From the NCBI GenBank assembly GCA_964187785.1, contig OZ076409.1:20214001-20278000 (forward strand): a stretch of DNA of 64,000 nucleotides, in the 5' to 3' direction. This DNA comes from Amphiscolops sp. MND2022. Lineage: Eukaryota. The position numbers and the translations under genes were made by a program. The notes beneath the pieces were generated by a model. The model was given only the letters and a program-made list of their open reading frames with translations, searched no databases and was not told the origin of the DNA. Of the stretch, positions 26,301 through 64,000 are shown piece after piece (the first letter of the stretch is position 1; each line of letters starts with the position of its first letter).

Positions 26301-29300
26301 ACAGGAATGATTGTGGATGTATTTTGACTTAAGTATCGCCTTTCGTCTGAATGGTTGCAGGGTATTTTTTTTGAAGTATTCCTTACATTGTCAATCTTGC
26401 TAAGTGTAAAGGAAATTATACAGCTTTATATGTGTTTGAAATGAGTCGCAATTGTGATTAAGTGTAGACGGAAATGAAATTATACGGATTAAACAATTTT
26501 GGGAATTAAACTCAATTGAGGTGTTAACTTAACTGAATTAAATGTGTTGAGTTTCTGTGTTGAGTTTTCTGTTTTTTTTTTTTACTACGTGTTGAGTTTT
26601 CCGTGTTGAGTTTTCATGTGTTGAGTTTTACGTACATCATCAATTTAATCAGATATCAGTTATCCGACCTTCAAATTTGACAAGTTTTGCGTATTTTGAA
26701 AGCATCACGAAATACGCGAAGAAAAACTTTCATTGTTGAATAGTTTGGTTAGCTCTTTAGTTTCATGGTGAAAATCAGGAAACGTCATTGCAATATTCAA
26801 AAAAGTATACGTAAAGCAAACCTTTCTTTCAGTTCTTTTTTGCTGGCCTGCAGATTGATATCGGCGGACATGAGTTTGATTGGATCCGTGAACTGCCACA
26901 CGTAGTAAACATCTTTGTTGGCTGCGATGATTAAACTTGACGTCATGCACAAGAAAGTGGGTTCTAAAAACGACAAAAACGTTGACGATATTAGTGAGGA
27001 TGAGGGCCGGTACAGTCCTGTGATAGAAGAATGGAACCCCTAATTGATATCAATGTTTGGAACACTCAATTTTTCTGCGCATATCTCTCAAAGATCAAGT
27101 CTTAAAGAGAAATGACTGATAAAAATTTATTGGAATTTGATCTAGTTTACATTCGTGTTTTTAGTCGGAGCATTTTAACAAAATGAGCCCGACAATTACA
27201 GTGGCGAGTTTTTTTCTTTTTTTCGTCAGATAACAGAATGTATGCGTGGTGGACACTTTTTACAGAACTAATAAACTACTGGACAGGCAAACGGAAACGC
27301 ATCTAAGTTAGTGCAAAGGGTCACCCTTTCATTTACTCCCTTTTTAACGTAAGGCACAAAACCAGACGAGACTATAGGGTTTGAGTTTTTTCGGCACTGT
27401 GCGACTTTTTTTCGAAATTTTGTTTGTCTCCAAAGGGTCCCCCCTTCAAATTTTTTGATATTTTACAGCAAATTGAAGTTTCAAAAAGCCCAAAGGGTCT
27501 CCCCTTTCAAGTTTTTCGGCACTATGAGACTGGCTCAAAATTTTTATTTTTCGATTTTTTTTAAAAAATCCAAAGGGTCCCCCTTCTACAATTTCAAAAA
27601 GTTTGAGCTTTTTGAGACTTAGATATGGCACCGACTTTAGACGTTCCCGTCTTGTTCAATCTTCCGATTCATCGCTGTCCACTGATTGCACTATCAAACT
27701 TTGAGGCACTTAGTATTTACACGTTTCATTGAAGATATTTATTTTCTTGCCGACAATTAGCTGTTTCATTTTTTCTTTGTCTACGTTAGCGCAATTTTCA
27801 AGATTCTACGTATTCTTAACCCTAAATAGTCTAGCGGTACTTTAAAGCAGCCTTCCTTTTTCAACTTCTGACCCGTACTGCCAGTGGCCCATATTCTCCA
27901 GTACATTTTTAATTCAACTATTTCTTGGTACCCTGTTTGGTCTGAACGGCACAATTATTAGCAATAGTGAATTTTTTTTCAAAGCTGCGAAAAATGGGTT
28001 TCTCTCGCAAAAAAATACTTTTCCAAAATTACTTATGGCAAAATCCAGTTTTCTCAAACGCCCTTAGCCCATGAAAAAAAGCAACCAAATACCTTTCCAC
28101 AACAAGACCCTGTGCAGTAAAACCAAAGGTATGCTGTTGTTACTGCAAGTCCCGCGCAGCGTCGGTACCGGAAAGAGAAACTAAAATTCTAAAGAATGGG
28201 CGCGCGGCGACAGAGGCTCGCTCACATGACCAAAACTAAAGCCCAGTACCTTTCAAACGCGCTATACTTCATTTCTCTGGTATGCGTAGTTGTGGAGATA
28301 TTAATGATTGAAATTTTTTAGCCCGATTTTGTGAAAATTTGTAAAAACGCCCAGGTCAATTAGGGTTAACCCCAATCGACCTGGGCGTTTTTTAAAATTT
28401 TCGAAAAATTTTCCAAAAAAATTTCAATCATCGATATCTCCACAACTACGCGTACCAGAGGAACGAACTATAGCGCGTTTGAAAGGTCTGATATTGGGCT
28501 TTCATTTTGGTCAGGTGAGCCCCTGTCGCCGCGCGCCCCTTCCTTCAGAATTTTAGTCTCTTTTTCCGGTACCGCCGCTTCGCGGCAGTTCCGCACTTCG
28601 TGCGGCCCGCTGCGCGAGGGCTTGTAGTAACAACAGAATATTATAGGGGTTTGTTGCACTAGGACTTGTTGTGGAAGGGTATGTGGTTGGTTTTTTCTAT
28701 TGATCAAAGACTTTTGAGAAAACAGCATTTCGTCAAAATCTGAATTTTGAGAAAATATAAGTCTTTTCTTGTGCAAAAAACCCATTTTTCTCAGCTTTGG
28801 AGATATATTCCCTTTTTCTAATGCTTGTGCCATTCAAACCAATCTAGGTACCAATTACTTGTTGAAAAAAACCGTGCTAGAGAAAATGGGCTACTGGCAA
28901 AAGGAATCAGAATTTGGAAGAAAAGGTAGGCTGCTTTAAAGCATCACTAGGTTCATTGGGGTTAACATCTAGAAATTGAACTGACTATAAACTGTCATAA
29001 ACAGCTGGAATTTATCTTTTCACAGCAGGGGGTGTCGAAAAACTTAGTTTTGACCATATCAAAAGACTTTTGTTTCCAACTTGTTAACCCCAATCGACCT
29101 GGGTGTTTTTAAAAATTTTCGAAAAATTTTCCAAAAAAATTTCAATCATCGATATCTCCACAACTACGCGTACCAGAGGAACGAACTATAGCGCGTTTGA
29201 AAGGTCTGATATTGGGCTTTCATTTTGGTCAGGTGAGCCCCTGTCGCCGCGCGCCCCTTCTTCCTTCAGAATTTTAGTCTCTTTTTCCGGTACCGCCGCT

Positions 29301-32300
29301 TCGCGGCAGTTCCGCACTTCGTGCGGCCCGCTGCGCGGGGGCTTGTTGTAACAACAGAATATTATAGGGGTTTGTTGCACTAGGACTTGTTGTGGAAGGG
29401 TATGTGGTTGGTTTTTTCTATTGATCAAAGACTTTTGAGAAAACAGCATTTCGTCAAAATCTGAATTTTGAGAAAATATAAGTCTTTTCTTGTGCAAAAA
29501 ACCCATTTTTCTCAGCTTTGGAGATATATTCCCTTTTTCTAATGCTTGTGCCATTCAAACCAATCTAGGTACCAATTACTTGTTGAAAAAAACCGTGCTA
29601 GAGAAAATGGGCTACTGGCAAAAGGAATCAGAATTTGGAAGAAAAGGTAGGCTGCTTTAAAGCATCACTAGGTTCATTGGGGTTAAAGAACTCCGATTAT
29701 GGGCTATTTATGCGATTTTAGAGACGCGTACGGAACTACGGTCCCTGATGGTGCCAAGGCTGTCACAATTGGAGGAATGTAAACTAGACAAAAATCCGAG
29801 AAACTGTTTTTATCATATTTTAGAAAATTGACAGTTTTCAAGAAATTCGCAAAACCATTAGGCTATCTAAAATTAATTATCAAACAGTGGTTGGATTCTT
29901 TTATCACAGGACTGTATCTTTCTTCACAGATTAAAATCAAGTACACGGATCAATGAAGCAGGATTAAGCCGCAGTCAACTAGAAGAATGAGCTCAACACT
30001 CTTATAAAATCAACAAGACGAGAACGTCTAAAGTCTGCGCCATATCTAAGGCTCAAAAAGCGCAAAACAATTTTTTGGAAAAAAACTTGATTTTTGAAAA
30101 AATTTCTTCTTTCAAAAAAAGTCGCATAGTGCCGAAAAATGTAAAAGGGGGACCCTTCTGGATTTATTAACATACATTCCGTTGCAAAGTATCAAAAATC
30201 GCGAAGGGGGGACCCTTTGGGGACATTAAAAAATTTTCGAAAAAAAGTCGCACAGTGCCAAAAAAAATCCAAAGGGGGGACCCTTTAGGCACGTCCGGTT
30301 TTGTGGGTTTCCTTGAAAAAGTAAATAAAAAGTAAAAAACCAAAGGGGGACCCTTTGGAATAACATATGCGTTTCCGGGGTATTCGTTTAGTTGAAGATA
30401 CTGAACGTTAGCGTTCGTCGCTTCGAGTCTGTCTTAAATAAAAAAACGAGTGACTGTAATAGTCGGGCTCTTTTCTTAAGAAAAGTGCCGACTAAAAAGG
30501 ATTGAATGAAGTATATCAGAAGCAATGCCCAACAAGTGCAAGAATCAACTGAAAACGCATCTCATCTCAGAAAGTTGAGAAATCGATTTGAAAAAATCCA
30601 GAAACGCTAAAACGAACCAACCGAAGTAGATAAACTTGGATTCCAGTGGAGTTCCGATGGAATTGTACAGAACAAGCATTATGGTGTTGCTCGAAGGAAG
30701 TTGTTTCTTGACAACACAACAGTATTCTCCATGGGCTGCAATCAGCAGCAAAAGTGTTGAGCTGGGCAAGCTCTTCTTGTGCAATTCCATATTTTTCACG
30801 TCCCAAAAGGCAATCTGAGCGATTCCAGCTGCATCCGTGAACTCGTATACTATAGTGTTACTGCAGTAGCCCCACTGAAACATACATCAAAATTATTTAT
30901 TTTCGCTCTCATTTCCATATGGGAAAGCAAAATAACTAACGCGTTTTCAAAATTTTCTAAAATTTGCCATGTTGCAATGTCAACCAAATTGAAGAGGTTC
31001 ACTCATAGACTATGACTCATAGAATTCTACTGGCTTGAACTTAGCTTCGTTCAATATGTATGTGTAGAGATTTTTGGGTTTTTTGGTTGACCCCAAAAAG
31101 ACTCCAAATCGCCATTTTTTAGACTTTTTATGCTATTTTTGTTTCAACCCCAATTAACCTGGCTATGCTTCTAAGCAGCATACCTTTTTTCCACTAAACT
31201 CTTAAAAAATGGGTGTGCGGAGACAAGGGATCACCAAACAAACATGAAAGCCTAGTACCAGATATTTCAAAAGTGTTGATAGTCGGCGTTTTCGAAAAAA
31301 AAGCACGACTCTTACAGTGGCTAGTTTTTTTCGTCAGTTCAACGCGATCGGTCCACTTTTTTTGTTCATTTGTTCAACTTCTTGGCCGAGAGGTTAACCC
31401 GGATTTTCTGGGGTCTGAGAAGCAGGAGAGTGTGGGTTCGAGTCTCGCACTAAACCACAAATTATTTATGCTTCCAAAAGTAGAGGGGAGACCAAAGGGT
31501 TCCCCTATTGCGTTTTTTTCGGCACTATTCGACATTTTTTTCGAAAATTTTTGAATTCTATCAAAGGGTACCCCCTTGAATTTTTTGAAGTTTTCAATTT
31601 GTAAAAAACGTTTAATAAGCCTAAAGGGTATCGTTTTAGGTTTTTCGGCAATGAGACTTTTTTTTACCAAATACGTTTTTTCAAAAAATTTGCAAAAATG
31701 CCCAGGTCAATAAACTGGTTAAACGTCAATCCATTAAAGGTCAAAGGGGACATGACTAAAACGAACACGTCATCGACATTTCCATTTTTCCGAAACTGGT
31801 ATTTGCGAAATTGATTTCATTATGGGATGCAGACAAAACACAAGAACGTTTACGTTTTGATTTGAATTCAATAACCTTGTAATTCGGTCGAATATTTGCA
31901 AAATAGATGTGTGAATCCACAGCCAGTGCAATTCGGAGGCCTCCGCCTTCCCACGAACAACTTTCTATGCTGTTTCCTGGAACTCTCAGACTTCTGAGAT
32001 GCTGAAAAACAAGGGCTACATAAAATGCACACTCAAACACTTTTGGGTTGTGCAAAAAGGTATCATTTTACAAGTTTCAAGACCTTAACAGAAAAATTTG
32101 ATTCATTATCATTCTCACCTAAAAGCAATTACGTCATCGAAATCAAATAGTTTTTTGGTCCAAATACACGACTAACTTATCTTTCCGATACTAAATTTCT
32201 TAGCAGTCAAGAGATATTGATGCTCTATATTTGATTCATCTGAATCTAGGAAATGGCTTACCTCTCCGTTATGGGAAAAGAATTGAATGACGTTGTTTTT

Positions 32301-42436: not shown

Positions 42437-43327
42437 TCAAAGTTTTTTGGAATTGCCAGGGTAATCAGTGGAGTTTGGTGAACTATGGCGTTTCCGTGTT
42501 CGAAAGCATGTTTCACATAAATCATGGCTCAGCTTTCCATCACGAGGAATGAAAGGAGATTTGCATATGACGCATTTTTTTTCAGCAAGTTTTTCCGAAT
42601 ATTCTGGGTGATACATACGCATGTGCAGAACACGGGGCCCGTTTTTATCAAAAAGCTGATCACAGAAGAGACATCTCTGAGTGAAACTACTTTCGTCGCC
42701 AGGTTTGTGAGCAACTTCATGGTTTTCTAGAGATCCTTCATCCATGAAGGCTTTCCTGCAAATTCGGCAATTAAAAAGATTATGCTTGTTGTGGGTAAAG
42801 TGCCAGTGTTTTTCGTACTTTGTTTCCGAGGCCAGTACGGCAGGGCAATCCGGACACTGGAATAAAGTTGCACCTTCGAAAGGTTTGCACTCATGTTTGT
42901 TCAGCATGTAGACACTATCAAAAGATCGATCACAGTCTTTGCACACTTGAATGTTCATCATTTCTTCGTGCTTTATTTGCGAATGCAATACATAGGCCCT
43001 GTAACTAGCGAAGTTCTTGCCACATCTCTGACAGAAGTAATTTTCGGTTCTATTGTCTACTTTGGAGAAAGGTATTGATCCGTTTTCATGCGCTTCTTTG
43101 TGTTGAATATAATTCGAATGCTGGGTAAAAACTTTCATACAATACTCGCAAACCCGATGATACTGCTCAAACTTCTCCGGATGTGATTGCATTGCATGTT
43201 GCTCTTTGGAAGCCAGAGTTTTGAACCTTTTGCCACACTCTTCGCATTGGAATGGTTTCCCATACCCATGACTGGATGTACTAGCATATGCGTCATGCTC
43301 TCCGTAGTAATATCCCTCGGACGCCAT
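42437..43327 (-). CDS. C2H2 zinc-finger protein (7 C2H2/C2HC fingers plus a C-terminal CxxC...CxxC), single coding exon visible
   Basis: Fingers such as CEECGKRF..H....H, CEYCMKVF..HKEAH, CRICRKAF..HEVAH. ATG at 43327; an upstream ttttag acceptor at 43345-46 means an additional upstream exon is possible. Confidence 0.88.
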   Translation of the reverse strand: MASEGYYYGEHDAYASTSSHGYGKPFQCEECGKRFKTLASKEQHAMQSHPEKFEQYHRVCEYCMKVFTQHSNYIQHKEAHENGSIPFSKVDNRTENYFCQRCGKNFASYRAYVLHSQIKHEEMMNIQVCKDCDRSFDSVYMLNKHECKPFEGATLFQCPDCPAVLASETKYEKHWHFTHNKHNLFNCRICRKAFMDEGSLENHEVAHKPGDESSFTQRCLFCDQLFDKNGPRVLHMRMYHPEYSEKLAEKKCVICKSPFIPRDGKLSHDLCETCFRTRKRHSSPNSTDYPGNSKKL

Positions 43328-43796
43328 CAAAGTAACATTTGCATCTAAAAACTGTCCAACAGAATGTCAGAGTGTTCTCGTTTGCTTATCCTATCAAAAA
43401 TTGAGCGTAGATGGTTCTATTCGAGAAACTCTTTAAAGCGAATGCGGGACTAAACAGCCGGTTTTCAGGACCAGACGAAAAGGCTGATTTGTAAAACGGG
43501 AAAAACAGTCGATTTGAGACGAAGACAGAAAAATGAAAAGGTGAAAATTACCCTTTGTAGTCAAATTTACAGAAAAAGTTGCCGCTGTTAAGCAAAATTC
43601 AATTGCCTGCGTTTAGAAATATATGTATTAAAGTACCTTGAAGACCAAAGACATGTAACCGAAAGTTGAAATGTCCAATATAAGAAAACTATTCCACTTT
43701 GTGCAATTTAGCTTTGAATACGCATTTGTCAAAAAACAACAGGCTATTTTCTGCTTCCGGGCTCAGCGCTTGTTTTTAGCCGGTGCTTTTGCTAGT

Positions 43797-47662: not shown

Positions 47663-50600
47663 TCAGCTCAAATTAGCTTCAGCTGGAGAAAAAGGAGGCG
47701 GTTGTCTGTTAATTTCTTCTAATGCAGCAAACATGGGCAGCGAAGACAACCCGGACTTGTTCAAAAACACGAGGAAGCTGACCAACAAATGACGTAACTT
47801 GTCTTTGGCGTTCATCACACATAAACTGTAGCGTAACTTGAGGTACTCTATCAAGTTTCTGTCTTTTGCTACTGTGCATTCTGTCATGATGCGATACCTG
47901 AAACAACATTTCAGCATCACAATTTAAAAATGTCTATTGAAATGCCACATTAGAAACGATTTTAGTTTCGAAATTTATAATGAAGCAATTATTTTTGATC
48001 TTGTATAATTCGATTTTTAAAATTTTGACTCTAGAAACGCAACTGGGAATCCAGGAAGCACTATATCAAAAAATTTCGGGTCGATGAAAATTTCGAATAA
48101 TCAAATTTCGTTCAACTTTCTGATCAAGGTTTCGTCCAATCCTGGTCAACATGGCGCAATGGAGTTTGAAGATGTTGTTCTCAGTCAGCGTTTGGTTCCA
48201 AAAGAAAAGCAAATGATGAGTAAATTTTACCTGTTCACGGTATCGCCATGGGTTTGAACGATTGAGCGAATGGTGTTGAGGTTCCTTATCACCAGCAACA
48301 GAGAAAGAGGTATGGCCCTGAGAACGTTCATCACTCTCGAAAAATGATTCTCCAGGAAGGCATTCATGTGCTGCAAGTCCAGTTCAGTGACACCACCTGA
48401 AATAATAATTTAATTTGAATTTATCTGATATTAAATGACAAGAAGCACAAAACTAATACCAATCATATACCGTCATCAAATAACAGAACAGACTTCCAAA
48501 GGCATATGCCCGCTTAACGGAAGCCTGATAACAAGTAATTCATAACATATCAAAACAAAAATATGAGGAATGTCAATTTTTTTAATGATTTTTTTGATTT
48601 TTTAAAATTATTTTTTTTTGAAAAAAAGTAGGTCAGGAACCGTTTGATACTTTGCATTCAGATGTATTTCTTTACCAACAGATTAAACACACATTCGATA
48701 ATCCAGACTGAAGCAGCGAATTTTCTGATTTATATTCATCACTTTATATTGGAGTCAAACGAAAACTAAGCGCAAAAAGTACACGGTTAGAAAACGTTTA
48801 AAACTTTTCAAACACTGAAACAAGGAAGCAGCAATTTCAAAATCGCAGTTCACTCCTCCGTTGTTTTTACTGACTTCAAAACATGTCACTTTCCTAAAAG
48901 GAAGGGGATCAAACGTTCCAGGTGTCATAACATAGGAATGTATTCGAAAAAAACATCACTGTACTGATGAGCATCTCAAGATTTGGGAAACAACAAAACA
49001 AAACATTTCAATCGGTGCCCCGCTCACGGCTCAAAAAGTCTGTTAAGGACTTGGTGATGAGAAACTCTGAAAAATCCCAAAGTATAGGGAAATTTCGAAG
49101 GGGTCCTTCGGATACCTTTTAGATCTCTGGCATGAAGTCCGTAAAAATTGATCAGTCAGTGTCACGACTGTTGCCTGACAAAACACTTGGAAGGATAAGA
49201 GTCGGGCATTTTTTCTTACGAAAGGCACTGATGTCATTGATATGTCGGGAACATTTTATTACAAAAACAACAGTCTAAGTAAAGTTCAACTTTTTGATGC
49301 GCCGCTTCTGTTTGTCGTACATTTACCGCACAATAACTTACCTTTGAAGTAGGAGGAGAATGGTACGTTTGCATACCAAGGCCTCTGGAGAAGTACACCC
49401 GCCAAAATTGCAGTATCCTGCAAACCGTGAACGCCCAAATCGCTGGCATACTGCAGCATTTTATCCGTGTCGTCCAATATCATTGCCTTCCAAAATTGAC
49501 CCAAATTTCGCTGGAAAAGAACAGAGAAGTGATTTCACATCAGAAGTGATTTCACCAGAGCCTGATTCAGTTAATTAATTCTTGATCGGTTTAATTTTTT
49601 CAGCCAATTGAGGCAAACAGAATCGGAGAATTGTCAATCAAGCCTTACAAATAAACGGAGGACCCTTGAAACCTAAAATACACTATTCCTTAATTGAAAA
49701 GATCACAAAACCCAAAATTGTGAAAATTGTTGAGAATTTTTCGAAAATGCAGGAAAACAGAAACCAAAATGCTTTCTCCTGACTAAAACTATACAAAAGC
49801 TCAACGAGGGGGCCCTTCAAAAAACTCACTGTGTCGAAAAAAATTTTGACGGTCAAAGTTTGACCTAGCGTTTTCATTGAAAAAACAATGAAATTTTAAT
49901 CCTCAAGAGGATTCGAACTCGCGACCTGACGTCTGAGATTCCGCGGTACTAGTCCAGTTCTTTAATAATGAGGACATGAACCTGTCAGTTGTCGTGCTTC
50001 AAAAAAAAGTCAACACTAAAGTTGGGTATCACAGAAAGCGCTGACTAAAACGAACTGGGCAACCAAATACAATGGCCCTTTACAATGGTAACAAGCCGGG
50101 CCCAAGTCGGCGCCATATCTAAGACTCAAAAATAGCAAAATGACTTCAAAAAGTCAAAGTATTGGTGAATTGGGGACCCTTTCGTTTGAAAAGTCTCACA
50201 ATGCCAAAAAAAATTGTCGCAAAACTCAAAAAAATTGAAGGGCGGGACCCCTTTGGGGAATTTTTTTTCGAAAAAAGTCTCACAATGCCGAAAACTCTTT
50301 AGTCTCTCCCGATATTGAATGTTACGCGGAAAACAAGGAAAAAGTTTTTTCGTTCAGTTTCGTGGGCCAACAGGTACAATTTAAAATTTTGTAGAGCGTT
50401 TGGTAGAACTATTTTGGTCATTTCAGGTGTATCAAAAAAAACTGACGAAAAGCCATGACTATAGTCGACTCTTTTCTCAAGAAAAGCGCCGACTAAAAAA
50501 ATTAGCTTCCAAATGCGACTTACTTGAACTTGAGGTTCCACGTACTGATACAAGCCGTGATCGAGAAGCACCAGTTGAATATCATTGTTTGGCATTTTTC

Positions 50601-52143
50601 GCACAAACAGGTTTCCTGGATGCGGATCAGCGTGGACAAAACCTGACTGGAATATCTGGTAGCCGAACACACGACACATTCTCTCGCAGGCCAACCTCAA
50701 GTTGATACCTGCTTTTTTCATGCCTTCCAGATCGTCTACTGTAAAATCAGCACAGTGAATCCAAAAACATTGAATGTACCAGTTTTATAAAGATATATAT
50801 TTACAGTAACTAACAACTGGACGGACCCTGTAAAATAGCTGTCATAAAGCGAGGTTACTATTATGCGATAATACGAAATAGCGATTTTGAAATTAGCGGT
50901 TTAGCGAAAAAAAATAGCGATACCAAAACCTTGCTCTATGTGCATATAATCAACGTAAAAGTTGAATTTCGAAACGATTTATCCAAAAAACAGCTACCGC
51001 AGAAATATTAAGTAAGTATTACAGAATTATCATGGGATCTTACTTTTGAAAGCGTCTATGAATTCGGCTGTTAGAATTCGCTTCGAGCTGTATTCCCAAT
51101 ATACTTTGGGCACGTAGACGTATTTGAAATGTTTCAAATCTTCAGCACATTTTTCGGCATTCCTTCCTTCGTTTATGAAGTTCAGTTCTTGTTCTAGGGT
51201 ATCACATAACTCATTCACAGCCCATTTAAAATTGAAACCAGGAAACACCCATTCAGCTATGTCCATCAATACCTTGATCGTCCAAATATCACCTAAAACA
51301 AGCAACCTCGTTCATGGACTTACTATTACATTCAAAGAACCGAGTTCAAAATGAACGTTAATGGTAGATAATGGAAAAACTCGTAAAAGGTTCTAAAGCG
51401 TGAGAATTCCATAGTACTAACCAAAAAATCTGTCTTGGAGATCGATGTATTGAACTTTGACAGCCACTGGTTGTCCTGATTTTAATTTCGCTTTATACAC
51501 AGTAGCAATGCTGGCAGCGGCGATAGGCTCTTTGCCAAATTCAGAAAAAATAGCGTCACGAGAAGTGGCAAGATCCTCCTGTATTATTTCATTTACGTCA
51601 TCCGAATGAGATGTCAAAGCCATGTCATTTAATCTAGACAATATCTGGACATATGCAGGATGCAGCAAATGATTCATCACCGCTAAACCTTGTCCAAATT
51701 TGATATACAAGCCTCCATTCAGAATAGCTACAACAGAAAGATCAGTGAAACAAAATCAATCCCCAGTCGATACGGATACCGAACAAAATAGGAAGGAACC
51801 TGTATCGAAGAACCGTTGCGCAATCCGTGAGTGACACGCGTCCGCAATTTCTTTGTACCGTGGAGATTCTGGTTCGATATTATACACGCTGAAGAACAAT
51901 GAAACGTTTATAAGGGTTCAAAAATTTTAGGGAAGCTAGGAATACAAGTGACGCCAACCTCCATTTGAAGTCGAAAGTGACGTGAACTCCCAACCCAATC
52001 ATACGAAAAAAGCGGTTAATGCTGTGGAAAGAGGTTCGAACTTTTCTCTTCTGCTGTTTATCTAGTAACAAGTTATAACCCAGTCCAACAGCACTGCCAC
52101 AACCAGAGCTCAATATCACAAATCTAGGCAGTTTAGATCTCAT
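47663..52143 (-). CDS. ADCK5: aarF/UbiB-family atypical kinase, ADCK5-like, 8 coding exons, about 537 aa
   Basis: Exons 51959-52143, 51800-51888, 51422-51727, 51044-51292, 50524-50738, 49342-49510, 48231-48396, 47663-47897 (1614 nt, phases continuous). Motifs NGGLYIKFGQ, PIAAASIA, VAVKVQY, ELNFINEGRN, GFVHADPHPGN, LLDHGLY. LLQRP and RNLNTIRSI favour ADCK5 over ADCK1 (from recall). Confidence 0.88.
50089..50500 (-). mobile_element. Helentron/HINE-like element in an ADCK5 intron
   Basis: AACAAGCCGGGCCCAAGTCGGCGCC at left; AAAGCGCCGACTAAAAAA at right. Confidence 0.62.
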
Positions 52144-52659
52144 TCAATAATCTGAAAGCATATTTCAGTTCACACCTCATGATTTAGGCGATTGCATTTT
52201 GTGTAACAAACGAATAGCATCAGGTGATATGGTCTATTATCAGCTAACGGGCGAAACTATTTATCTAGCCCATTAGTATGTCTTTAGCAACTCTTTAAAC
52301 TCTATTTTAAAAATAGCATTGTCAAACTCTTGAAATTCTATCCCACATAGTACAAGCAGGAATGCAACAAACGAAATTTCAGAGTTTTTGAAACATTCCA
52401 AACCTTCAACGATTAAATAGGAGAAAGCTTTAAGGTTCCAATGAATCGAAACAGGACAACCATCTATTCATGTGCTCGAAAGACTCAGACATCGACAGTT
52501 CAAAAGGAACGAATAACCTTCGACGTATCAAACAAAACGCGACGATCGGCAATAGGATACCATATTTTGAGCTCCTCTGAAAGCAAACTAGAACTAACCT
52601 GTGATAACTAAGTCGACTAACTGCATGATTAAATGAGTTTCGAACTCGAAATGACTAAC

Positions 52660-53399
52660 CAGAAAAGCGATCTTGAAGATCGATAAATTGTATTTTGACA
52701 GCCACTCTTTCTCCTGTGACAAGAACAGCATCAAAGACTTCAGCAATACTAGCAGACGCAATGGGGCAACGATCAAAAGATTGAAATATTTGATTCAAGC
52801 TTTTCCCCAAGTCCTGTTGAATAATCTCGTCTGTTTCTTCTTCTTTTGATTTCAAAGCCATGTCGTTCAACTGAGACATTTTCTGCACATAAATAGGAGG
52901 AAAGGTTTGGTTACACGCTGCTATGGTTTGACCGAGTTTGATATATACCCCTCCAGTCTCAATAGCTAATCAAAAGTAAACTCATTTAGGTATTCACATC
53001 AAGTAATATAAAAATATCAGAATGAGCTAAATACTAACCCGCTTTCAAAATTCTATCAGCAGTTTTTTCATGAAATTTTTCCAATTGATCTTCATATTCG
53101 TGGGTTCCTTCAACGAAGTTCTCCAAACTGTTAACAAAACTAACTAAACTATGCGTTCTCGGAGACACTTGCACGAGACAAGTGAACTTCAAAAATATAT
53201 ACCTTCGAAAATCTTTTCTGATTTGCCATCCCATAACAGCCAACAAAATGGAGCGATCAATTCCTTGTTTCTTCAATCGTAACTTTCGTCTTTGTTGTGA
53301 CGTTAGCCCCAAATAATAGACATTATGGCCGACAAATATCGAAGTCACGAAGACAAAACGGATTTTCGATCCACCGAAAATATGCAAGAGACCACTCAT
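52660..53399 (-). CDS. Second, diverged set of ADCK5 coding exons 1-3 (alternative N-terminal module or partial duplicate)
   Basis: Exons 53203-53399, 53039-53127 (89 nt) and 52660-52965 (306 nt). Exons 2 and 3 have the same lengths and phases as 51800-51888 and 51422-51727. Motifs GGVYIKLGQ, LNDMAL, PIASASIAEV, VAVKIQFIDLQDRF; no stops. Confidence 0.85.
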
Positions 53400-54587
53400 T
53401 TCAAACTAAAAACTACAACCTAGAAAGCAGAGCATTCGTCACAATCCAGCTGCCGGTATTTTCTTAGGTTTCTAACAACTAAACAAACGCTTGGTTTAGG
53501 GGTCGAAACTACTTTTAAAAAACGACAGCGAAAGGAATTTGTGTCTGTTGATACACTCTGCAAACACAAAATTAACTTATAAACCAGCATAGTACACGTG
53601 AGGGCAGGATGCATTAGTAGTGCGGAACGACTTCAATTCACCCCTTGGTGAGTTTTTTGACAGATGAAGATTCAAGACTGCTGAAAAATTCAAATCATTT
53701 TTTATGCCAAAACTATTCCCAAAAAAATGCTAAACCGGACAGAAACATCTTCAAAATGAAATACTTCGTACACACTTTTTCATAATGAAATACAGTTCAT
53801 TTTTAACCAAGAATTTTTCCACTCTCAGATGACACAGATTGACGCTATTGAGTACCGTACTGGTAATCAAACCAAATCTCAATTCAAAAGATAGATCAAG
53901 CAATTATTAGATCATCGAGAACACAGTCAAAGATTCGACAGTAAGAAAATACTACACAGAAGTCGAAGACAGCAAACACCGTGTAGAACCGAATAAGAAA
54001 ATTTCCCTCATGGAAATCATGTTAGGCAGAATGGCTCACAGCCCTGGTGATGATGATGAAACGCTTTCTTAAGACTCGAAGCGTTCAGAAAGAAGTGTTT
54101 TCAGCTCCTATTTGAAAATTTCGGGGATGCAATGCTTCTTAAAATGTCTGGGAGTTAATTGCAGTTAGGTACCAGCGAAAGAAAAACATCGAAGGGCAAA
54201 ACTGTGGATTCCGGACATTTCGGCGACAAAATACCACGGAGGTTTCGACACCCACCATGAATTTGAAAATACGGGGTCATTTAATAAATACGAACTTCTT
54301 GACTTCAAAATCATCAACCAATTGTACGTACAAAACGTTCTCGTAAGTGGTAATGCTTTATCAATAGCATGTTTAGTGTGTTGTCTCGTGTTTCAGTATC
54401 GTGTGTATGGCGGATTCCCAAAGCGTCGAAATTTTGCAAACTATTCATCGCGCCGAAAAATAATTATTGAACGCTTCTGATTGGTTGAAAATTGAAATAG
54501 GAAAGAATTAAATTTGTTGAATTTGTGTGCTACACAGCATCGAACTAATTACGATAACGTAGTCAGCTATGTTCCCATACTCCTAGT

Positions 54588-54787
54588 NNNNNNNNNNNNN
54601 NNNNNNNNNNNNNNNNNNNNNNNNNNNNNNNNNNNNNNNNNNNNNNNNNNNNNNNNNNNNNNNNNNNNNNNNNNNNNNNNNNNNNNNNNNNNNNNNNNNN
54701 NNNNNNNNNNNNNNNNNNNNNNNNNNNNNNNNNNNNNNNNNNNNNNNNNNNNNNNNNNNNNNNNNNNNNNNNNNNNNNNNNNNNNNN
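54588..54787. other. Assembly gap (200 N)
   Basis: Run of n. Confidence 0.99.
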
Positions 54788-57644
54788 TTCATGAAAAAGT
54801 ACAATTCAGTTCACTGTCTGGTAGGTGCCTATCAAGTCTGCTATCCATTTCGACGTCCTTCAATTCATCGGTTTTTCAGTCAGCCGATACACTGGTCGGT
54901 TTTCAACCATCTAAACTTGACCAACACGTCTTAAATGTCAAAAAAGTATCGAAATATGTATTGTGCGGGAAGAACGCCTGAAACATGACATCTAAATACA
55001 AAACGGGAACAACATCTTGAACTGAATCATTTCTAAGGAATATCTTCTAAAGGTTTAGATGTTATTCCGTTTCTAAAAAAAGACATTTTGAAAGCGAGAA
55101 CATCATAAGCTGGGGCATATGCGGTGTATGCACGCTCTCTCTCATCGTTGCATAGATCAACTCACACTACGATCGCTTCGCGATCTCCGTTCACGCTAGG
55201 TATTTGCTCTTGTTCGACCTGCTTTAGCAATATGGGAACATAAGCAGCCTCAAGGGACCGCGGAACACTAGAGGAAATAGGGACATATCCGAGGCACTTT
55301 TTATACGTTTTGTCACTTCACAATTAAATACGATTTAGGAGCTGGCATTCTCTGGACCTTAGTTACAAAAAATGACATTTGGATTCTAGTTCATTATTCT
55401 TAGTTATAGGAGTGGGTTTCGATTTTATTCCCTAGATCGTATTTTCTGCACACTATTTCATAGTCCAATAAAAAAAATTAGAACAGTGGAAGAAAGTTTC
55501 AGCACGAGAAACATTATTTCAAAATCGGGGAATGACATCTAAAAAACAGGAAAAATGTCTGAATCTTTAGACGTTTTTGCTGAAAATGAGAAAACTTTAG
55601 ACATTGTTCCTTTAGACATTATTCCTCAGACGTTATTCCCGCCCCTGAAGGCCGATGAAGTTAATGCAGACTACTAAGGTTTTGAGCGCATTCCTCGTAG
55701 AGGTTGTCACGACCCGCTTCCGGCCGTGATTTTACTTGCTGCTCTGGGGTGAAGGGATTTGGCAGGAGTTGTTGCCATTGATAAAGCAAGTATTTTTAAA
55801 ACTGTTTATAAGACTTAATTCTACTTACAGTACAGCTGAATTATTTGATAATGGTTTTTCCGAACACGAAATCTATCGTAACCGATACGGAACGATTTGA
55901 GAAAGATTTTTTAAATTTGCTAAAACTTCCGGTCTATTGTTTTCACATGCGAAGCTATCTTCTCTTTCCGGTTTTGTTTTCTGAAATTTCCACACTAATC
56001 TAAATACTAAAACAAGAATATTTCCTAATATGGGATCATTTCTTCCTTCCCCACACTAAAATGAAAACATTGAAAATAATATTAAACTCCGGGATCCCAA
56101 CGGAGCTCAAACAATCTAAAATGAAAAAACATATAAAACAGTCCAGTGGAATTATTTTCCAGTATCAAAGTAGTAGTCAGTATTCGCTTAAGTTACAGTC
56201 AAGTAATTCAAGTGAATGTTCACAACGATATGACAACGTCGCTCAACTAGGCGAGCAACTGGTGTTTCTATTTATACGGACCACTAGCGTCTTCTTGCTG
56301 ATTGATCTTAGCTCAAACTAATAAAATCACGCTCGGTGACGCTATTTTAGCAACCTTAGCAACGCTATTTCAACTAAGAGAAAAGAATGAAATTGCCTAC
56401 GCTCTCCGCTTTTTCTCCGGCAGCCACCGCTGCTCAGCTATACCTAATCTTAATACGTACGGAGCAACTACGGAGTGAATTGCAAAATTGTATTCCGCTG
56501 CTTAGTTATAGATAATCTTGATACGTACGGAGTAACTACGGAAAGAATTTTGAAGTTATAACTAGAAGGCAGTGATCCAAACCAGTTTCAAACGAGGCTT
56601 TTCTTGAGTCGACGCATTTAATGTATTTTGGGACTAGGAGTATTACATAAGGAAAGATGTACCGTAAGAAAGGTTGGTGGAAATTGCAGTGGCATTTTTC
56701 ATATTCAGACTTTGTATCACTATGGTAAATCACTGGATTGCGTTGACATTACGTTTTGTTTAAATATGTTTTTAAAGAACAGATGTACGTATTTCATTAT
56801 AATACCTAAGATACCTTATTGATAATCCTAGTACAAGACGTAAAGTCAACGTTAATTTTTCCCGTTTTCAAGCCAGTAGTAATGGCTCCACCTTGCATCA
56901 ACAGCAATTATGCCAAGGACTGAATCACGATTGTGTTTTGACGAATTTTTTGGCTGTTGTGTAAAATGTTGAAGTTGCTTTAAATTTGGTACTGCAAATA
57001 CGTTGTGTTCATATATTTGACAGTATAATTATTGTTGCAATCCGTTAAAGTCCTGTTTGAACTAGTTTTTTGTGTTCAGTATGTATACTTTAGTATACCA
57101 TTAGCAAGAAATTCACATTGAATTTGAACTATCGTTTCCAAAAATTCTTTGCTCCGTTTCATTTCCGTCGCCATTTTTGCAAGTCATACCTTTGCTTCGA
57201 GTCTCAGCTTCCTAAGTTGAGAAGTGATTAAATGATCACGCCGGTGTACCTACGCGGATAGAATTACAAATTTACAAAATGTACTTTTATTTTGCCGCAA
57301 TTTTGAAACGCAAACAGGAAATGGAATTGCCTGAACAAAAATAATTTCAACAAATTATTACGGAAAAACGACGCAACTAGGATTTTCGATATCTGATTTT
57401 ATGACGCGGGACTGAAATAATTTGAATCATTAACGCTTTTTAGTGAAGAAACCCAATTTTTGTGATACCTAGGAAACTGTAGGTGAGGAACAAATGATGC
57501 TGAGAAGGTAGTTATATGTAGAAACATGTAAAACGAGTCAGTTAGTTTTGTAATTGCATTGCTTTTAAATTGTTCCGTTGTATAAACAAAAAACAAAATT
57601 TCCTTCAAAGAAATCACCGCTTTCCGGAGACTCTGATTTTTTAG

Positions 57645-59895
57645 ATGACAACTAGAAGTCAGAAAAGAAAGGCAGTAGCTGAGCTAGTTTCTGGAGAATT
57701 TGAGACCTCTATAGCAGAGAATAGTCTACCTGAAAACCTAGTAGCTGGTCCTAGTAAAACCCTCAGAGTTGAACCTGAAAACTTAGATGACACAAAAACG
57801 TCCTTGAGAAAAGAAATCATGAGTGATTTCGCAAAAATTTTAGCTAAAAACCAAAAAGAAATGCCTAAACTAATAGCACTTTTGAACAAAAAACGATCAG
57901 TTCGTTTGGAAGACCAAAACTTTCTGCAAACTTGGCTGCTCCCAAGCCTACCACTGCCTCCAAATGGCAAATCAAAGGTCTGTTGAATTGCTTGCTTTCA
58001 ATTTCACTAGTAGGACGTTTACTATTCAGAGACTAACCCAAGGACTCAGTTGGGCCCTGTCAGCCTTTTCGAGTTTCATGAGTGAGTACCTTGACTCAGT
58101 CATCAAAGCATGTCGGTGTGCACAGTATGTCGATGACATTGGGATCGCCGCAAATACAACGGAACAGCTCATCAAAAACATCAGAGCAGTTTTCAAGTGC
58201 ATCAGAGAAGCGGGATTCAAGCTGACAATCGAAAAATGTCTTTTTGGAGTAACTCAGATCGAATTCCTTGACAGAACAATAACCCCAGACGGAGTAGCAC
58301 CTCAAGACCAAAAAGTCAAAAATTTCCTGTCCTACGTACATTTTCCGAAATCAAAGAAACAAGTCCAAAAATACATCAGTTTTGTGAACTATTATCGAAA
58401 CTTCATTCCGCGCTTGTCAGAAAAACTCATTGAATTGTATGAACTCCTCCAAGCGGACGCCAAAATTAGAATTTCCGAAGAACTTGTTGTTAATTTCAAA
58501 GAAATCAACGCCAGCCTAGCAGAAGCCTGTGGACTAGCAGTACGACAGCCCAAAGCAGGAAAACAAAACGTCCTCATGACCAATGCGAGCTTCCGTGCAT
58601 CAGGTTATGCGCTCATGATAGAGGAAAACGTTGAATGGAAACTCCTCTCAAAAAAAACTTTCGCCCCAGTAGCGTTCGGATTGCGTGTTTTCTCACCAGC
58701 ACTCTTAAGGATGTCAATATATTGCAAAGATTTTTTGGCTATATACCATGTTTTCCTCGAATATAGCCACATCCTATAGGAAACAACCTTATCGACACTT
58801 GCACTGACGGACAATAGATCAGTGACGAGATTTTTCCAACCCAAGACCATGCCACCAGCATTGGGGAATGCCTGCGACTATGTCCTACAATTTTAATTCC
58901 GTAACAGGCTCCCAGAATACGGCAGCAGATTTCATCTCTAGGCTCAAGTCAACTTCCAAAGAAAAGTTCAGTTGAAATTACGAGACGACGTCCTAACGTC
59001 ACCCATTGAAGTAAACCTTCAATCGACAGGCGTTGTGGATGAAGAACAACTTCTCTTTCAACTAGGCGGAGAAGAAGAATCAGAACAGGATTTTTGTGCC
59101 AGAAAAACACTTGGTAAACAACGTGATATCAACGAACACGAGACTGAACTATCGACAAAAAAGTCCGAAGTCATCAAAAAACCACTCAACTCCGCAGTCT
59201 ACACGTTCGGAGCTATCAAGGAAAACGCCCGCATCCGAAACGAGCAAGATGCGGTTCCTCTCCTCGAAGCGCTCAAACTACGGATACTACATGAAGAGTA
59301 CGACAAACACCTTTTCAAAAAAGAATTGCGAGGAAGAAATTTACTCGGACATGAAGAAAGAATAACCATGAAAGATGGCGTACTCATGCGGAAGTACTAC
59401 GGAGAAGATGGATCAGTCACCCACTATCAGATAATGATACCGAAACACATAGTCCTTGAACTTCTGTCCACGCCGCTTGTGAAAGCAAATAAACATCCAG
59501 GAATAACGAAGATGATACAGGAATGCCGAGCCAAGTATTACTTCCCGGGACTAGCACGAAAACTCAGAGCTTGGGCAATGAGCTGCCCAGACTGCATCGC
59601 TAACAAAAGAATCGACACGAGACAGATACGTCCTAAAATCTAAAGCAACACCGATTTTACAATGGAACCAGAAGACTGTCTGGAAGTCGACATACTTCCA
59701 AACTTACCTTCCTCCAAGTGATATCAACACATCATCACGATGATGGATGTCCTTTCACGCTATCTCTTCGCACACCCAACACAAGACGTGACTGCAAAAG
59801 CAGTAGCGCGTTGCAACATCGACGTAATGACAAAGCACTGCTTTTTACCAACTGTCATATTGACCGATAAAGGATCACAATTCAGATCAGAGGTT
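57645..59895 (+). mobile_element. Decayed Ty3/Gypsy LTR retrotransposon (gag-like start, RT, RNase H, integrase N-terminal part)
   Basis: RT QGLSWALSAF...QYVDDIGI...KLTIEKC; RNase H MTNASFRASG and LTDNRSV; integrase HPGITK...YYFP...CPDC and ILTDKGSQF; order RT-RH-IN; several stops and frameshifts. Confidence 0.9.
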
Positions 59896-62800
59896 GAGTT
59901 AAATCACCATTCGCAAATACATCGTAAAAAGCCATCCACAGTATCAACCCAAAAGTTCGTATCGAAAAAGAATGCTCAGTCTGATTCGGGTACAGCATCC
60001 ACAAGTGATGTGAAACCAAATTGCAATGAGACGCAAAGAAATCAAGCTGCTGAAGGCTTTTGTGCGAAAACCACAAACACCAGCAATGTTCTTTTCTCAA
60101 CAGCGATGGTGAAAATTCAAGATCATTCAGGAAAACATATTCAAATGCGCGCTCTTCTTGATTCTGGATCACAGGCTAGCTTCATCACGTAGTCCAACGC
60201 GAAAGCCTTGATGTTGGATGTTGAAAATAATCCGGACGCAAACGCCAATCAGTCCTCTAGTTGCCGCAAAGGCCCAAAAGACTACCCACTCGACTGAATC
60301 AGACTATTGACACTAGTCTGCACATTATTCCTAAAATTACGAATACATTGCCAGTGAAACATTTCTATATTTTCCAATTGAAATATGGGAACCCTGCCTT
60401 TAGCAGACCCGACTTTCAACGCGCCGGGGAAAATTGACATTCTTTTTGGCGCTGACGTCCTCGAAGACATTTTTTTGGAAAATCGAATCCGAGACAATGG
60501 AGTTGTATTTCGAGAATCACTTTTTGGTTGGATAGTATCTGTTCTCGTCAAAAAAGTGAGCAACCCATTGGACTATGTCATTAGCAGCAATGTGTCTGTC
60601 GTTTCGGAGACCACGGATGATCTTCTATTGAAGTTTTGGGAGTTACAGAATATACCAATGAAGAAACATTTGACTGCAGAAGAAACAGCCTGTGAAAAAC
60701 ACTAATGACACAATTATTCGGAAGCAAGATGGCACGTTCGCCGTCCAACTTCTGTTTCGGTCAAGTGACACTAAACTAGGCCTCAGCAGAGCAAGCGCGT
60801 TGTAGCGTTTCTTTAGTCTCGAGCGCAAGTTGAATGACAATCCTGAATCAGAAAGGAATACATTGCATTCATACAAGAATTCATTGATCTTGGCCATATA
60901 GAACTGGTTCTCAAAAATGAATTAGACAACTCTAAATGTTATTATCTCCCTCATCTCTGTGTGTATAAACCAGACAGCGTAACAAAAACATTGCGAGTTG
61001 TCTTTGACGCCAGCGCAAGGACAACATCTGGTCATTCTCTGAATGACTGTCTCCTCGTAGTTCCGAAGTTACAAGATGACCTCTTCAATAATCTCGTGCG
61101 GTTCAGTTTCTTTAAAACAGCTATGAGCGCAGACATTTCCAAAATGTAGCGACAAGTTGAACTGAATCGACAAGATCGTGACTTCCATAGAATACTGTGG
61201 CGATCAAATTCAATGCAACTATTTCAGACTCTTTGGATGACTAGCGTAACGTACTGTAACGGCGCAGCTTCCTATCATTCCATTCGAGCATTGACAGAGT
61301 GCGCTAATCAGCCAAATGTATGAATTGACGTTCAGGAGCCTATAAAACGTGACTTTTATGTTGACGATATTCTGACGGTTGCTCCGTCTGTTGAACAAGC
61401 AAAGCAACTACAAAAAGGTTTGATCAGCGCGTTGGAGCGAAACATATTCGACCTACGAAAGTGGACTTGTAGTGATCGGTCGCTCACGTTTTCGCTACCG
61501 CCCGAGTATAGAGAAGCTAATGAGTCATATGAGTTCCTAGACACAAATCATAGCATTAAAACTTTAGGCCTTTTCTGGAACCCTTCTCTTTATAACTTCA
61601 GCTTCAAAATTCTGCAGTTAGATCAACAGGTGAACAATGCACAAATGACCAAATGGAAGGTCCTTAGTGACATCGCCAAAATTTTAACTCCTTTGGCTGG
61701 CTATTGCCGGTCACGCTGAAAGTGAAGCATATCATGAAAATTATATGGCAGACCAATGTCGCCTGGAATGATAAATTACCATCTGATGCTTTGGAATCGT
61801 ATATCGAATGGCAATTCAAATTACTGGCGCTTCCCAAGATAAAACCACAACGTTTTGTGTTAAGAACAAAACAAGCAGATACCGTGTTCTTGCAACTCTT
61901 CTGTGATGCTTCCGAGATCGGATACGCTGCTTGCATCTTAATCGTAGCTCAAGATGAGCTAGACATGCGGGGTTCGACTCTATTAACAACAAAAACCAAA
62001 ATTGCACCTCGAAAAGCGCAATCAATACCTCGACAAGAACTTTGCGCAGCCCTTCTGGGATCCCAATTAATTAATTCATTTCACGAAAACCTTATTAAAA
62101 TGAATGTGAAAGTTCAATCACAATACGCTTGGACTGACTCTACTTTTGTTTTAAACTGGTTATCTTCTGAGCCAAGCGTTTGGGCAACCTTTGTAGCCAA
62201 TCGAGTTGCTAAAGTTCAAGAGAACAAAAACCTAATTTTGGAATCATGTGCAAACACACGAGAATCCAGCGAATACAGCCTCCAGAGGTGTGGATCCATC
62301 CAATCTTGAGAATTGGTCAATCTGGTGGGTCGGTCCGGATTGGATCAAAACTCATGAGTCATTCGTTCCATTCAAACCAGAAGGGACGAAAGAAGAAATA
62401 GAAAAGTCTTCTCAAAACATTTCCGTGATGACAGTTTAATTGCCGAACGACACGTTCAGAGATGTTATTGATCTTTCGAAGCACAACTCGCATAATTGCC
62501 TTCATTTTGCGATTCATCGAAAACTACTGTAAGAAACAAAACAGGAAAACAAAAATCCCTAGTTCAGTAGACCTTAAGATCGCTACTGAGGTTCTTGTAA
62601 GTCACGAACAGAGAAAGACATTTTTGGAAGAATTGGATCCCTGAAACGGGGTAATTTAGTGCGAGCAAAAAGCAATATCCTTAAACTGTATTATTTTCTG
62701 CATAATGACGTATTGCATGTTGACGGTCAATGTGCTAAGGCTGAAATGCCTTACGAAGCCATGTACCCTCAGATAGTTCCACAAAAAGTGAATTTGCAAG

Positions 62801-64000
62801 GTTGGTAATTCATGACCCTCATCTAAAAACCATGCATGGTGGAACTATTCAAACAATAGCAGAAATTCGTACCCGATTTTGGATACCAGCATGTCGCAAC
62901 CAAGTACGAAAAGTTATCTTAAACTGTATCACCTGTTGTAGATTTAATTCAAAATTTGAAAAACCCTTCGTGGGGGATTTGCCTAAATCAGGAATAACAG
63001 TTCCCTCCAAGGCGTTCCAACACGCTGGATTGGACTTTGGAGGGCCATTTTCTGCAAAAGTGATAGTAAAGAATTCACGAAAGTATATTTAGCTTTATTT
63101 TTGTGCTTTGCCAGTGAGGCAGTGCATCTGGAGTTCGTCTCTGATCTCATAACCCAAGCATGTATCGCACTGCGGCGCTTTACGTCTAAGAGGGGTTGCC
63201 CTGCAACAAATAATTCAGATAACGGTTCGAACTTTCAAGGCTCCTTTGCAGAGCTCCTCAAACTTAGGAAATTTCCTAATGACACGACAGAAAACTACAT
63301 ACAAGCAGTATCAGCCGGAAAACTTATTGAATGGAAGTTTATTCCCCCATGAGCTCGCCATTTTGATGGTTCGTGGGATGCTGGGATTAAGAGTGCAAAA
63401 AAGCATCTAAAACGAAGAATGGGTAAAAAGATTTTCAGTTTTGAAGAGCTTTCCCCCTTTTTTGTCAAGTAGAAAACGTGCTAATTTCAAGACCCATAGG
63501 ATTAGTCTCAAATGATCCAAAAGACGAAGTCATTTTGGCTCCTGGGCACCTGATAAGTGGATCCCAGGCATCCGAGTTGAAATGCTGCGCTGCAACTGCT
63601 CGCTGGACTCACATCCAAAATGTCTTATGTCATTTCGCTGGAAAAAAAGTAGGTATCCACTTTCCAGGAAAGAACTAAATGGACGAAACAGAGCTCCAAT
63701 CTTAAAGTGGGCGATGTTGTATTTGACATGGACGACAACGCGGCTCCCTGGCAATGGCCCTTGGCGCGAGTGTCGTATGTGTACAGTGGGCCAGACAATA
63801 TTCGTGTTGTGAAGGTCAGAACATCAACTGGCGAACATAATCATCTCGTCAACAAACTCAAAAAACTTCCCCTTTTTGATGACTCACCCGTCAAAAAAAA
63901 CAGTACTCCCAAAAGTTAGACCAATTGCTCTTATTCTAGTTGAAACTCTAATCACTTTGTTTCCTCATGTTGATTCGATACAATCAAAGTGGGCGGTATG
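59896..64000 (+). mobile_element. Decayed BEL/Pao LTR retrotransposon pol (protease, RT, RNase H, integrase), ending at the polypurine tract and first bases of the 3' LTR
   Basis: RALLDSGSQASFI, LADPTF..PGKIDIL.GAD, YYLPH, LRVVFDASA, ADISKM, FYVDD, KTLGLFW, FCDASE.GYAA, IPRQELCAA, WTDST, FVANRV, ENPA..ASRG, GLDFGGP, SDNGSNF, WPLARV; window ends GGGCGGTA-TG. Confidence 0.92.

Follow-up and report, generated by a model that had tools for sequence, protein, structure and literature searches.

We analysed a 64,000-nucleotide (nt) stretch of the Amphiscolops sp. MND2022 genome (assembly GCA_964187785.1, contig OZ076409.1, positions 20,214,001 to 20,278,000 of the forward strand; hereafter, the window), which carries on its minus strand a gene for an ADCK5-like member of the UbiB/ABC1 family of kinase-like proteins. 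The gene consists of two three-exon 5' modules, the outer B and the inner A, followed by five shared exons (Table 1). Judging from sequence, this single acoel ADCK5 gene very probably gives rise to two live isoforms, both full-length UbiB-type enzymes.

The second set of exons 1-3 was noticed in a sequence-only reading, which placed it at 53399-52660, and all of its coordinates hold. In both modules, exon 2 measures 89 nt, exon 3 measures 306 nt and the intron phases are 2, 1 and 1; every internal splice site is GT/AG and the frames are free of stops, as that reading had described. On translation, A with the shared exons gives 537 amino acids (aa) and B with the shared exons 541 aa, with one terminal stop each; the B3 donor thus fits the exon-4 acceptor at 51292 in frame. 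We also find no second copy of exons 4-8, in agreement with the earlier claim, as the shared exons are single-copy genome-wide. Across the whole assembly, exon 5 and B exon 1 have one match each, and the exon 3 sequence has two, namely A and B. The possibility that B is a piece of another gene copy is ruled out by the single-copy shared exons. There is no assembly gap between B and the stop codon, and the nearest gap (54588-54787) lies outside the gene body.

Table 1. Features of the two-module ADCK5 gene, in positions of the window
Feature	Position	Strand	Description
Acceptor-like site, 20 nt upstream of B ATG	53419..53441	-	Putative acceptor of a 5' untranslated region intron or of the spliced leader
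Module B exon 1	53203..53399	-	ATG, conserved FGGS-x-[IL]RF start, hydrophobic anchor, basic cluster
Module B exon 2	53039..53127	-	89 nt; helix preceding KxGQ motif
Module B exon 3	52660..52965	-	306 nt; KLGQ, Ala-rich loop ASAS then Glu, beta-3 lysine; phase-1 donor
Inter-module spacer, 516 nt	52144..52659	-	Unused strong donor 52599, acceptor-like 52151; probable A start
Module A exon 1	51959..52143	-	ATG, in-frame stop directly 5', hydrophobic anchor, basic cluster
Module A exon 2	51800..51888	-	89 nt
Module A exon 3	51422..51727	-	306 nt; KFGQ, AAAS loop, beta-3 lysine; phase-1 donor
Shared exon 4	51044..51292	-	N-lobe insert, ExD-type motif (ELN), alpha-C glutamate, beta-4/5
Shared exon 5	50524..50738	-	Catalytic loop HADPHPGN, DHG motif
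Shared exon 6	49342..49510	-
Shared exon 7	48231..48396	-
Shared exon 8, including stop codon	47663..47897	-

Both module types occur in other acoels

A protein search with B exon 3 yielded two matches among 102 candidates, one in Symsagittifera roscoffensis and one in Convolutriloba macropyga, both acoels, and the search with A exon 3 returned C. macropyga isoform X2 first and then ADCK5 of many animals (best 120 of 353 matches). Among the C. macropyga RefSeq isoforms, X1 (XP_075256471.1) and X2 (XP_075256472.1) are A-type, X3 is A-type minus the exon-3 equivalent, and X4 (XP_075256474.1) is B-type; in 4/4 of them, an identical C-terminal part of 341 aa begins at the exon 3/4 junction. Because X3 lacks exactly the exon-3 equivalent, the exon borders are common to C. 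macropyga and the window gene. Alternative RefSeq isoforms usually rest on RNA-seq. The A/B isoform pair is thus already implicit in the public annotation of C. macropyga, and the layout proposed from the window, with A and B types on one back half, recurs in a related species.

S. roscoffensis has a 537-aa B form (XP_063727883.1), and the window gene has the same module types, junction and shared back half as ADCK5 of these two species. In the shared part, the window protein is 66-67% identical to that of each relative, which are 78% identical to one another, and the window genome is therefore that of a third, more distant acoel. Two 202-aa B-only models are also annotated in S. roscoffensis (XP_063727519.1 and XP_063727521.1), with the same N-terminus as its full B form; they could reflect a partial duplicate or a haplotype left uncollapsed, or else a genuine short product.

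Such a product figures in an alternative that we consider improbable, namely that expression of B exons 1-3 by themselves yields a protein of about 198 aa, ending just inside the intron and acting as a decoy or partner, with A as the only full enzyme. Read-through past B3 into the intron does stop at once, and the 202-aa models end at the same place. However, the same read-through stop follows A3, full-length B is annotated in both relatives, and a motif scan of the 516-nt spacer between the modules found no AATAAA or ATTAAA. Moreover, the KxGQ and beta-3 lysines are retained in B, and their partner residues lie in exon 4.

The duplication is old and both copies appear constrained

In a tree of 33 N-terminal modules, with 30 outgroups hand-picked from the protein matches and two rows left out for lack of the cut motif, the A modules form one clade (support 97/82), the B modules another (100/100), and acoel A and B together a third (100/99). 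The approximately unbiased (AU) test rejects the grouping of A with B both within the window genome (p 2.5e-5) and within C. macropyga (p 3.3e-5). Since modules of one type cluster across species and the species-wise grouping is rejected, the duplication is old and both copies have been kept; a recent or species-specific duplication is ruled out by the same test. On this reading, the tandem duplication of exons 1-3 would predate the separation of this lineage from Convolutriloba and Symsagittifera.

A second tree of 39 rows, including four ADCK1 outgroup rows and with one row left out for lack of the cut motif, places B inside ADCK5 as the sister of A, with rough bootstrap values. The window gene falls within a branch of 31 rows (100/100) that holds the named ADCK5 proteins, and the four ADCK1 rows fall outside it. 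An origin of B from ADCK1, which we also considered, is ruled out by this nesting.

The stem of B is long (1.28 vs 0.28 for A in the 33-module tree), and the end branches of the two window modules are nearly equal (A 0.85, B 0.87). This pattern suggests a burst of change after the duplication, followed by constraint, with A placed nearer to the ancestral ADCK5 than B. Exons 2 and 3 of the two modules align without gaps at 61/131 identical aa. Exon 2 is the most diverged exon (5/29), and exon 3 has 56 of its 102 aa identical, close to the half that had been noted at first sight. Codon-position identities over exons 2 and 3 are 78, 89 and 54 of 131, with third positions the least conserved, and a comparison of the A and B introns found no convincing similarity. 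The ratio of non-synonymous to synonymous substitution rates (dN/dS) between the modules, named in the sequence-only reading as a measure of function, came to 0.20 (NG86), 0.31 (LWL85) and 0.09 (maximum likelihood), all below 1, with dS saturated and the values indicative only. B exon 1 is 46-51% identical to B exon 1 of the two other acoels, and all three B exons are individually nearer to the B exons of other species than to A.

These comparisons bear on the possibility that B was formerly live and has recently died in the window species, leaving a silent remnant. In its favour, window B keeps the fewest family-conserved columns of the A and B modules, 45/72 compared with 50 and 53 in the other B modules and 56 in both A modules. 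Against it, the start, the frames and all splice sites of B are intact, the end branches are equal, and neutral decay breaks such a module quickly: in simulated drift of 0.1 substitutions per site, the frame and splice sites survived in 3.4% of 5000 runs, counting substitutions and not indels. We regard a silent remnant as very improbable.

The swapped block cuts through the kinase N-lobe

Four exons match the ABC1 domain above the Pfam PF03109 cut-off of 22.9 bits (exon 3B 67.6, 3A 70.6, exon 4 85.4, exon 5 61.9), and KxGQ, the Ala-rich loop, the beta-3 lysine and the catalytic loop are present, as in ADCK5 elsewhere. Structural placement rests on sequence alignment to COQ8A, with the motif layout taken from PMC4718504; a structure search gave six matches, none of them a solved ADCK1 or ADCK5. 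The KxGQ motif reads KFGQ in A and KLGQ in B, the Ala-rich loop that takes the place of the Gly-rich loop reads AAAS in A and ASAS in B, and the beta-3 Lys, alpha-C Glu, catalytic Asp/Asn and DxG are all present.

The variable block comprises a hydrophobic anchor, the KxGQ-bearing N-terminal extension, the Ala-rich loop and the beta-3 lysine. Shared are the N-lobe insert and ExD, together with the alpha-C glutamate and the catalytic C-lobe. The A/B junction falls just past the beta-3 lysine, inside the N-lobe, and both modules must therefore presumably keep the same contacts to exon 4. The earlier description of one shared catalytic C-lobe is right for the C-lobe but too narrow, as the alpha-C and ExD elements of the N-lobe are shared too. 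ExD reads ELN in shared exon 4 and ELD in both related acoels, with the Glu kept and Asp changed to Asn; this one-base difference is either a real change or a sequence error.

In 12 columns all three B modules depart alike from the outgroup consensus, and from six of these both A modules depart as well. Six changes, counted at sites where the A module of one or more species keeps the ancestral residue, are fixed in B only relative to 28 outgroups, namely E86, F117, K124, S166, E171 and F189 (B numbering). The E171 site lies beside the Ala-rich loop, where Glu occurs in 1/142 and Gln in 138/142 motif matches from 149 family representatives (7/149 yielded no match, and a few of the matches lie off the motif). 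The sequence-only reading had pointed out that the usual Gln after this loop is replaced in both modules (AAASIATV and ASASIAEV). This is correct for the present genome, but only the B change is a conserved feature, the Thr in window A being species-specific, with Gln in C. macropyga A. ATPase activity and its activation by membranes are known for COQ8 (10.1101/149823); at the COQ8A membrane-binding basic residues described in the same source, the alignments revealed no consistent A-versus-B pattern.

N-termini

By simple scales, which underlie all presequence and anchor calls here, both window modules have a hydrophobic stretch and lack a long basic presequence. Only 4-6 residues precede the first hydrophobic stretch in window A and B, as in two ADCK1 proteins (4-6), compared with 13-14 in the other B modules, 25 in C. 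macropyga A, which has a basic presequence, and 35-66 in seven non-acoel animal ADCK5 proteins. The window gene thus differs from those seven in lacking the presequence and in the ELN form of ExD, and from C. macropyga in that its A module has no basic presequence. Different targeting of the two isoforms, as proposed earlier, is plausible in C. macropyga and is not visible in the window species, given the 4-6 residues in both modules. We also considered a hidden upstream coding exon that would supply A with a presequence; of 25 in-frame candidates in the spacer, none uses the best donors, 52599 and 52518.

How one module may be chosen

Each module has its own ATG behind an in-frame stop. Acceptor-like sites lie 8 nt upstream of the A start (52151, 93rd percentile of 3362 AG sites) and 20 nt upstream of the B start (94.9th percentile) under a crude splice-site model built on 9-10 sites; true acceptors fall at percentiles 66-99 under the same model (leave-one-out), and the B3 donor reaches the 99.9th percentile, the model having been trained on that donor. 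The spacer donor at 52599 is very strong and unused, and could close a non-coding first exon for A. Another ATG, out of frame and 37 nt upstream of the A start (52144-52180), opens a short frame overlapping that start; it would vanish if the acceptor at 52151 were used, and could be an upstream open reading frame or an assembly slip.

We propose that the mRNA begins at either module. The start of the A form would lie in the 516-nt spacer, at a promoter of its own, and spliced-leader trans-splicing at 52151 may complete this transcript; the B form would start upstream and splice 52660 to 51292, skipping A. Most mis-joins of B into A would stop early and be cleared by nonsense-mediated decay: the reading frame closes at 71, 97 or 199 aa when a B exon is joined to the A exon-1 acceptor, and at 229 aa when B3 is joined to A2. 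The swap would exchange the anchor and KxGQ extension together with the Ala-rich loop and beta-3 lysine, leaving alpha-C, ExD and the C-lobe common. B is predicted to share its chemistry with A, handling lipids or coenzyme Q in a nucleotide-dependent way at the mitochondrial inner membrane, but to differ in membrane docking or in the tuning of the nucleotide pocket.

Trans-splicing is likely to be available in the window species. A 20-mer of the S. roscoffensis leader has 2868 matches in the genome, compared with 18 for a control, and the leader of the window genome is the same as the published one. Part of the matches fall in a 904-bp tandem repeat, which combines the leader and a GTAAGT donor with hairpins, an Sm-like site and a 5S rRNA gene. 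The resulting array of spliced-leader RNA and 5S rRNA genes occupies 16.23-16.41 Mb of contig C1, largely with the 904-bp period. S. roscoffensis trans-splices 30.2% of its genes (PMC9911081), and C. elegans sma-9 offers a precedent for alternative trans-splicing inside one gene (PMC2904332).

As to what sets the choice, separate promoters seem the likelier solution. One promoter with alternative trans-splicing is unlikely, and a shared non-coding leader exon slightly more so. In nematodes, cis splicing is favoured over trans splicing when the RNA carries a donor further upstream, and for this reason our preference is for a second promoter in the spacer, whether or not a leader is added to its transcript. 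The sequence-only reading had envisaged two mutually exclusive modules feeding one back half; the acoel isoforms and the tree support two live modules on one back half, but the term mutually exclusive fits less well, the choice being likelier made at the 5' end.

It is also conceivable, though very improbable, that the locus is combinatorial and makes the chimeras B1-A2-A3 and B1-B2-A3 besides pure A and B, which would set the B anchor on the A nucleotide pocket. Both chimeras are in frame at 541 aa, and cross-cassette joins have been seen in chelicerate sDscam (PMC4835542). Yet 0/4 C. macropyga isoforms are chimeric, and the nearness of each of the three B exons to other B exons fits inheritance as a block.

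Several further points weigh against two live isoforms with a clean choice between them, beyond the S. roscoffensis 202-aa models and the low count of conserved columns in window B. The B3-A3, B1-A2 and B2-A3 joins are in frame and would escape filtering, and RNA pairing that would loop out A is not beyond chance (32, 37 and 36 of 40 shuffles were as strong). A motif scan found no TATA box in the spacer, the splice-site model has 9-10 sites behind it, and the junctions and starts in the window species are themselves predicted from the genome. The C. macropyga evidence consists of database isoform models, their transcript support taken as annotated. An S. roscoffensis A-type protein was absent among the best 120 of 353 matches of one search, the 18 matches of another and 3 cluster members, and the form may be lost or unannotated. 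S166 of the B loop is common across the family (44/142 matches), and the function of ADCK5 itself is described as not established (PMC8346625).

Comparison with known cassette systems

The duplicated 5' cassette is a known design. As in chelicerate sDscam and clustered protocadherins, duplicated 5' multi-exon units are spliced to constant exons, each unit having an ATG of its own shortly after an in-frame stop (PMC4835542). The window gene differs from these, as they are described in that source, in having two cassettes, not dozens, in sharing them between species where the others are species-specific, and, compared with sDscam, in a cut through one enzyme lobe and not between immunoglobulin domains. 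Separate promoters have been shown for sDscam and protocadherins (PMC4835542), whereas for the window gene they are predicted.

Among human tandem-exon substitutions, 39-40 of 236 are N-terminal, with alternative promoters and mostly single exons, and the exon swapped between FynT and FynB covers the start of the kinase domain and the ATP site (PMC8373072, PMC9741552). Unlike these events, the window gene swaps three exons and about 195 residues, so that the anchor moves along with the nucleotide loop, and does so in an organism that has spliced-leader genes. It also differs from ADCK5 elsewhere in its two alternative N-terminal modules, which were not noticed in the non-acoel matches, whose isoforms were not screened. 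In the open-access literature, supplements aside, we found no paper on a two-module ADCK5.

The UbiB set of the genome

A genome search with PF03109 gave 9 matches among 33 candidates, comprising one COQ8-like gene, four pieces of the window locus and four ordinary kinases, the latter labelled from reading their translations. The COQ8-like frame is intronless, 568 aa long and located on contig C5 (around 30114114-30114839); it was named from its motifs in comparison with COQ8A. ADCK1 was not detected with PF03109, TIGR01982 or two named ADCK1 proteins, for all of which the only UbiB genes reached were the COQ8-like gene and the window locus. Because the ADCK1 queries reached these more distant targets and found no ADCK1, the gene is apparently absent. 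The count of UbiB genes is nevertheless a lower bound, as a gene could go unnoticed through short exons, fast evolution or assembly gaps, and the search for ADCK2 went through the family profiles only.

In yeast, Cqd2, a putative counterpart of ADCK1/5, and Cqd1, that of ADCK2, shift coenzyme Q in opposite directions, and their kinase-like domains are needed (PMC8346625). Mcp2/Cqd2 faces the intermembrane space and is described as closest to ADCK1 (PMC6761770), and ADCK5 is mitochondrial with its function unclear (PMC12193262). These data allow a more speculative reading, which we consider rather doubtful: ADCK1, and probably ADCK2 too, was lost, and a second inner-membrane UbiB enzyme was rebuilt within ADCK5 as B, with the choice made at the 5' end. 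Under this hypothesis B, with its short ADCK1-like N-terminus and its own loop signature, would take the job of what is a separate gene elsewhere, and the choice between the halves would possibly be set by the site of spliced-leader addition. If so, the locus would be a natural module-swap experiment, in which the block of anchor, KxGQ and loop alone sets the direction of coenzyme Q or lipid movement.

For the two-isoform reading itself, the interest lies in the functions of ADCK1, ADCK2 and ADCK5, which are open, with yeast Cqd1 and Cqd2 moving coenzyme Q oppositely (PMC8346625). As the catalytic back half is identical, differences between the A and B proteins must come from the anchor, the KxGQ extension and the nucleotide loop. 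The role of the swapped block should thus be directly testable via two N-terminal blocks conserved across acoel genera. To the known 5' cassettes the gene adds a three-exon case that divides a kinase lobe, in a spliced-leader lineage with an apparently reduced UbiB set.

Neighbourhood of the gene

ADCK5 is co-oriented with a C2H2 zinc-finger frame (309 codons, 42437-43366, minus strand) and, beyond it, a WDR35/IFT121 gene identified by Pfam at about 4200-37000 on the same strand. Between the WDR35 exons, again on that strand, lie a Cys-rich frame of 675 codons (20514-22541) and a frame of 141 codons (22960-23385) labelled lectin-like by eye, both with no Pfam match. Two near-identical frames of 121-122 codons, 718 nt apart (28468-29554), mark a local tandem duplication within the WDR35 span. 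Upstream of ADCK5, beyond the 200-N gap at 54588-54787, a broken long terminal repeat (LTR) retrotransposon at 57400-63800 retains a reverse transcriptase, an integrase zinc finger and a Pao peptidase.

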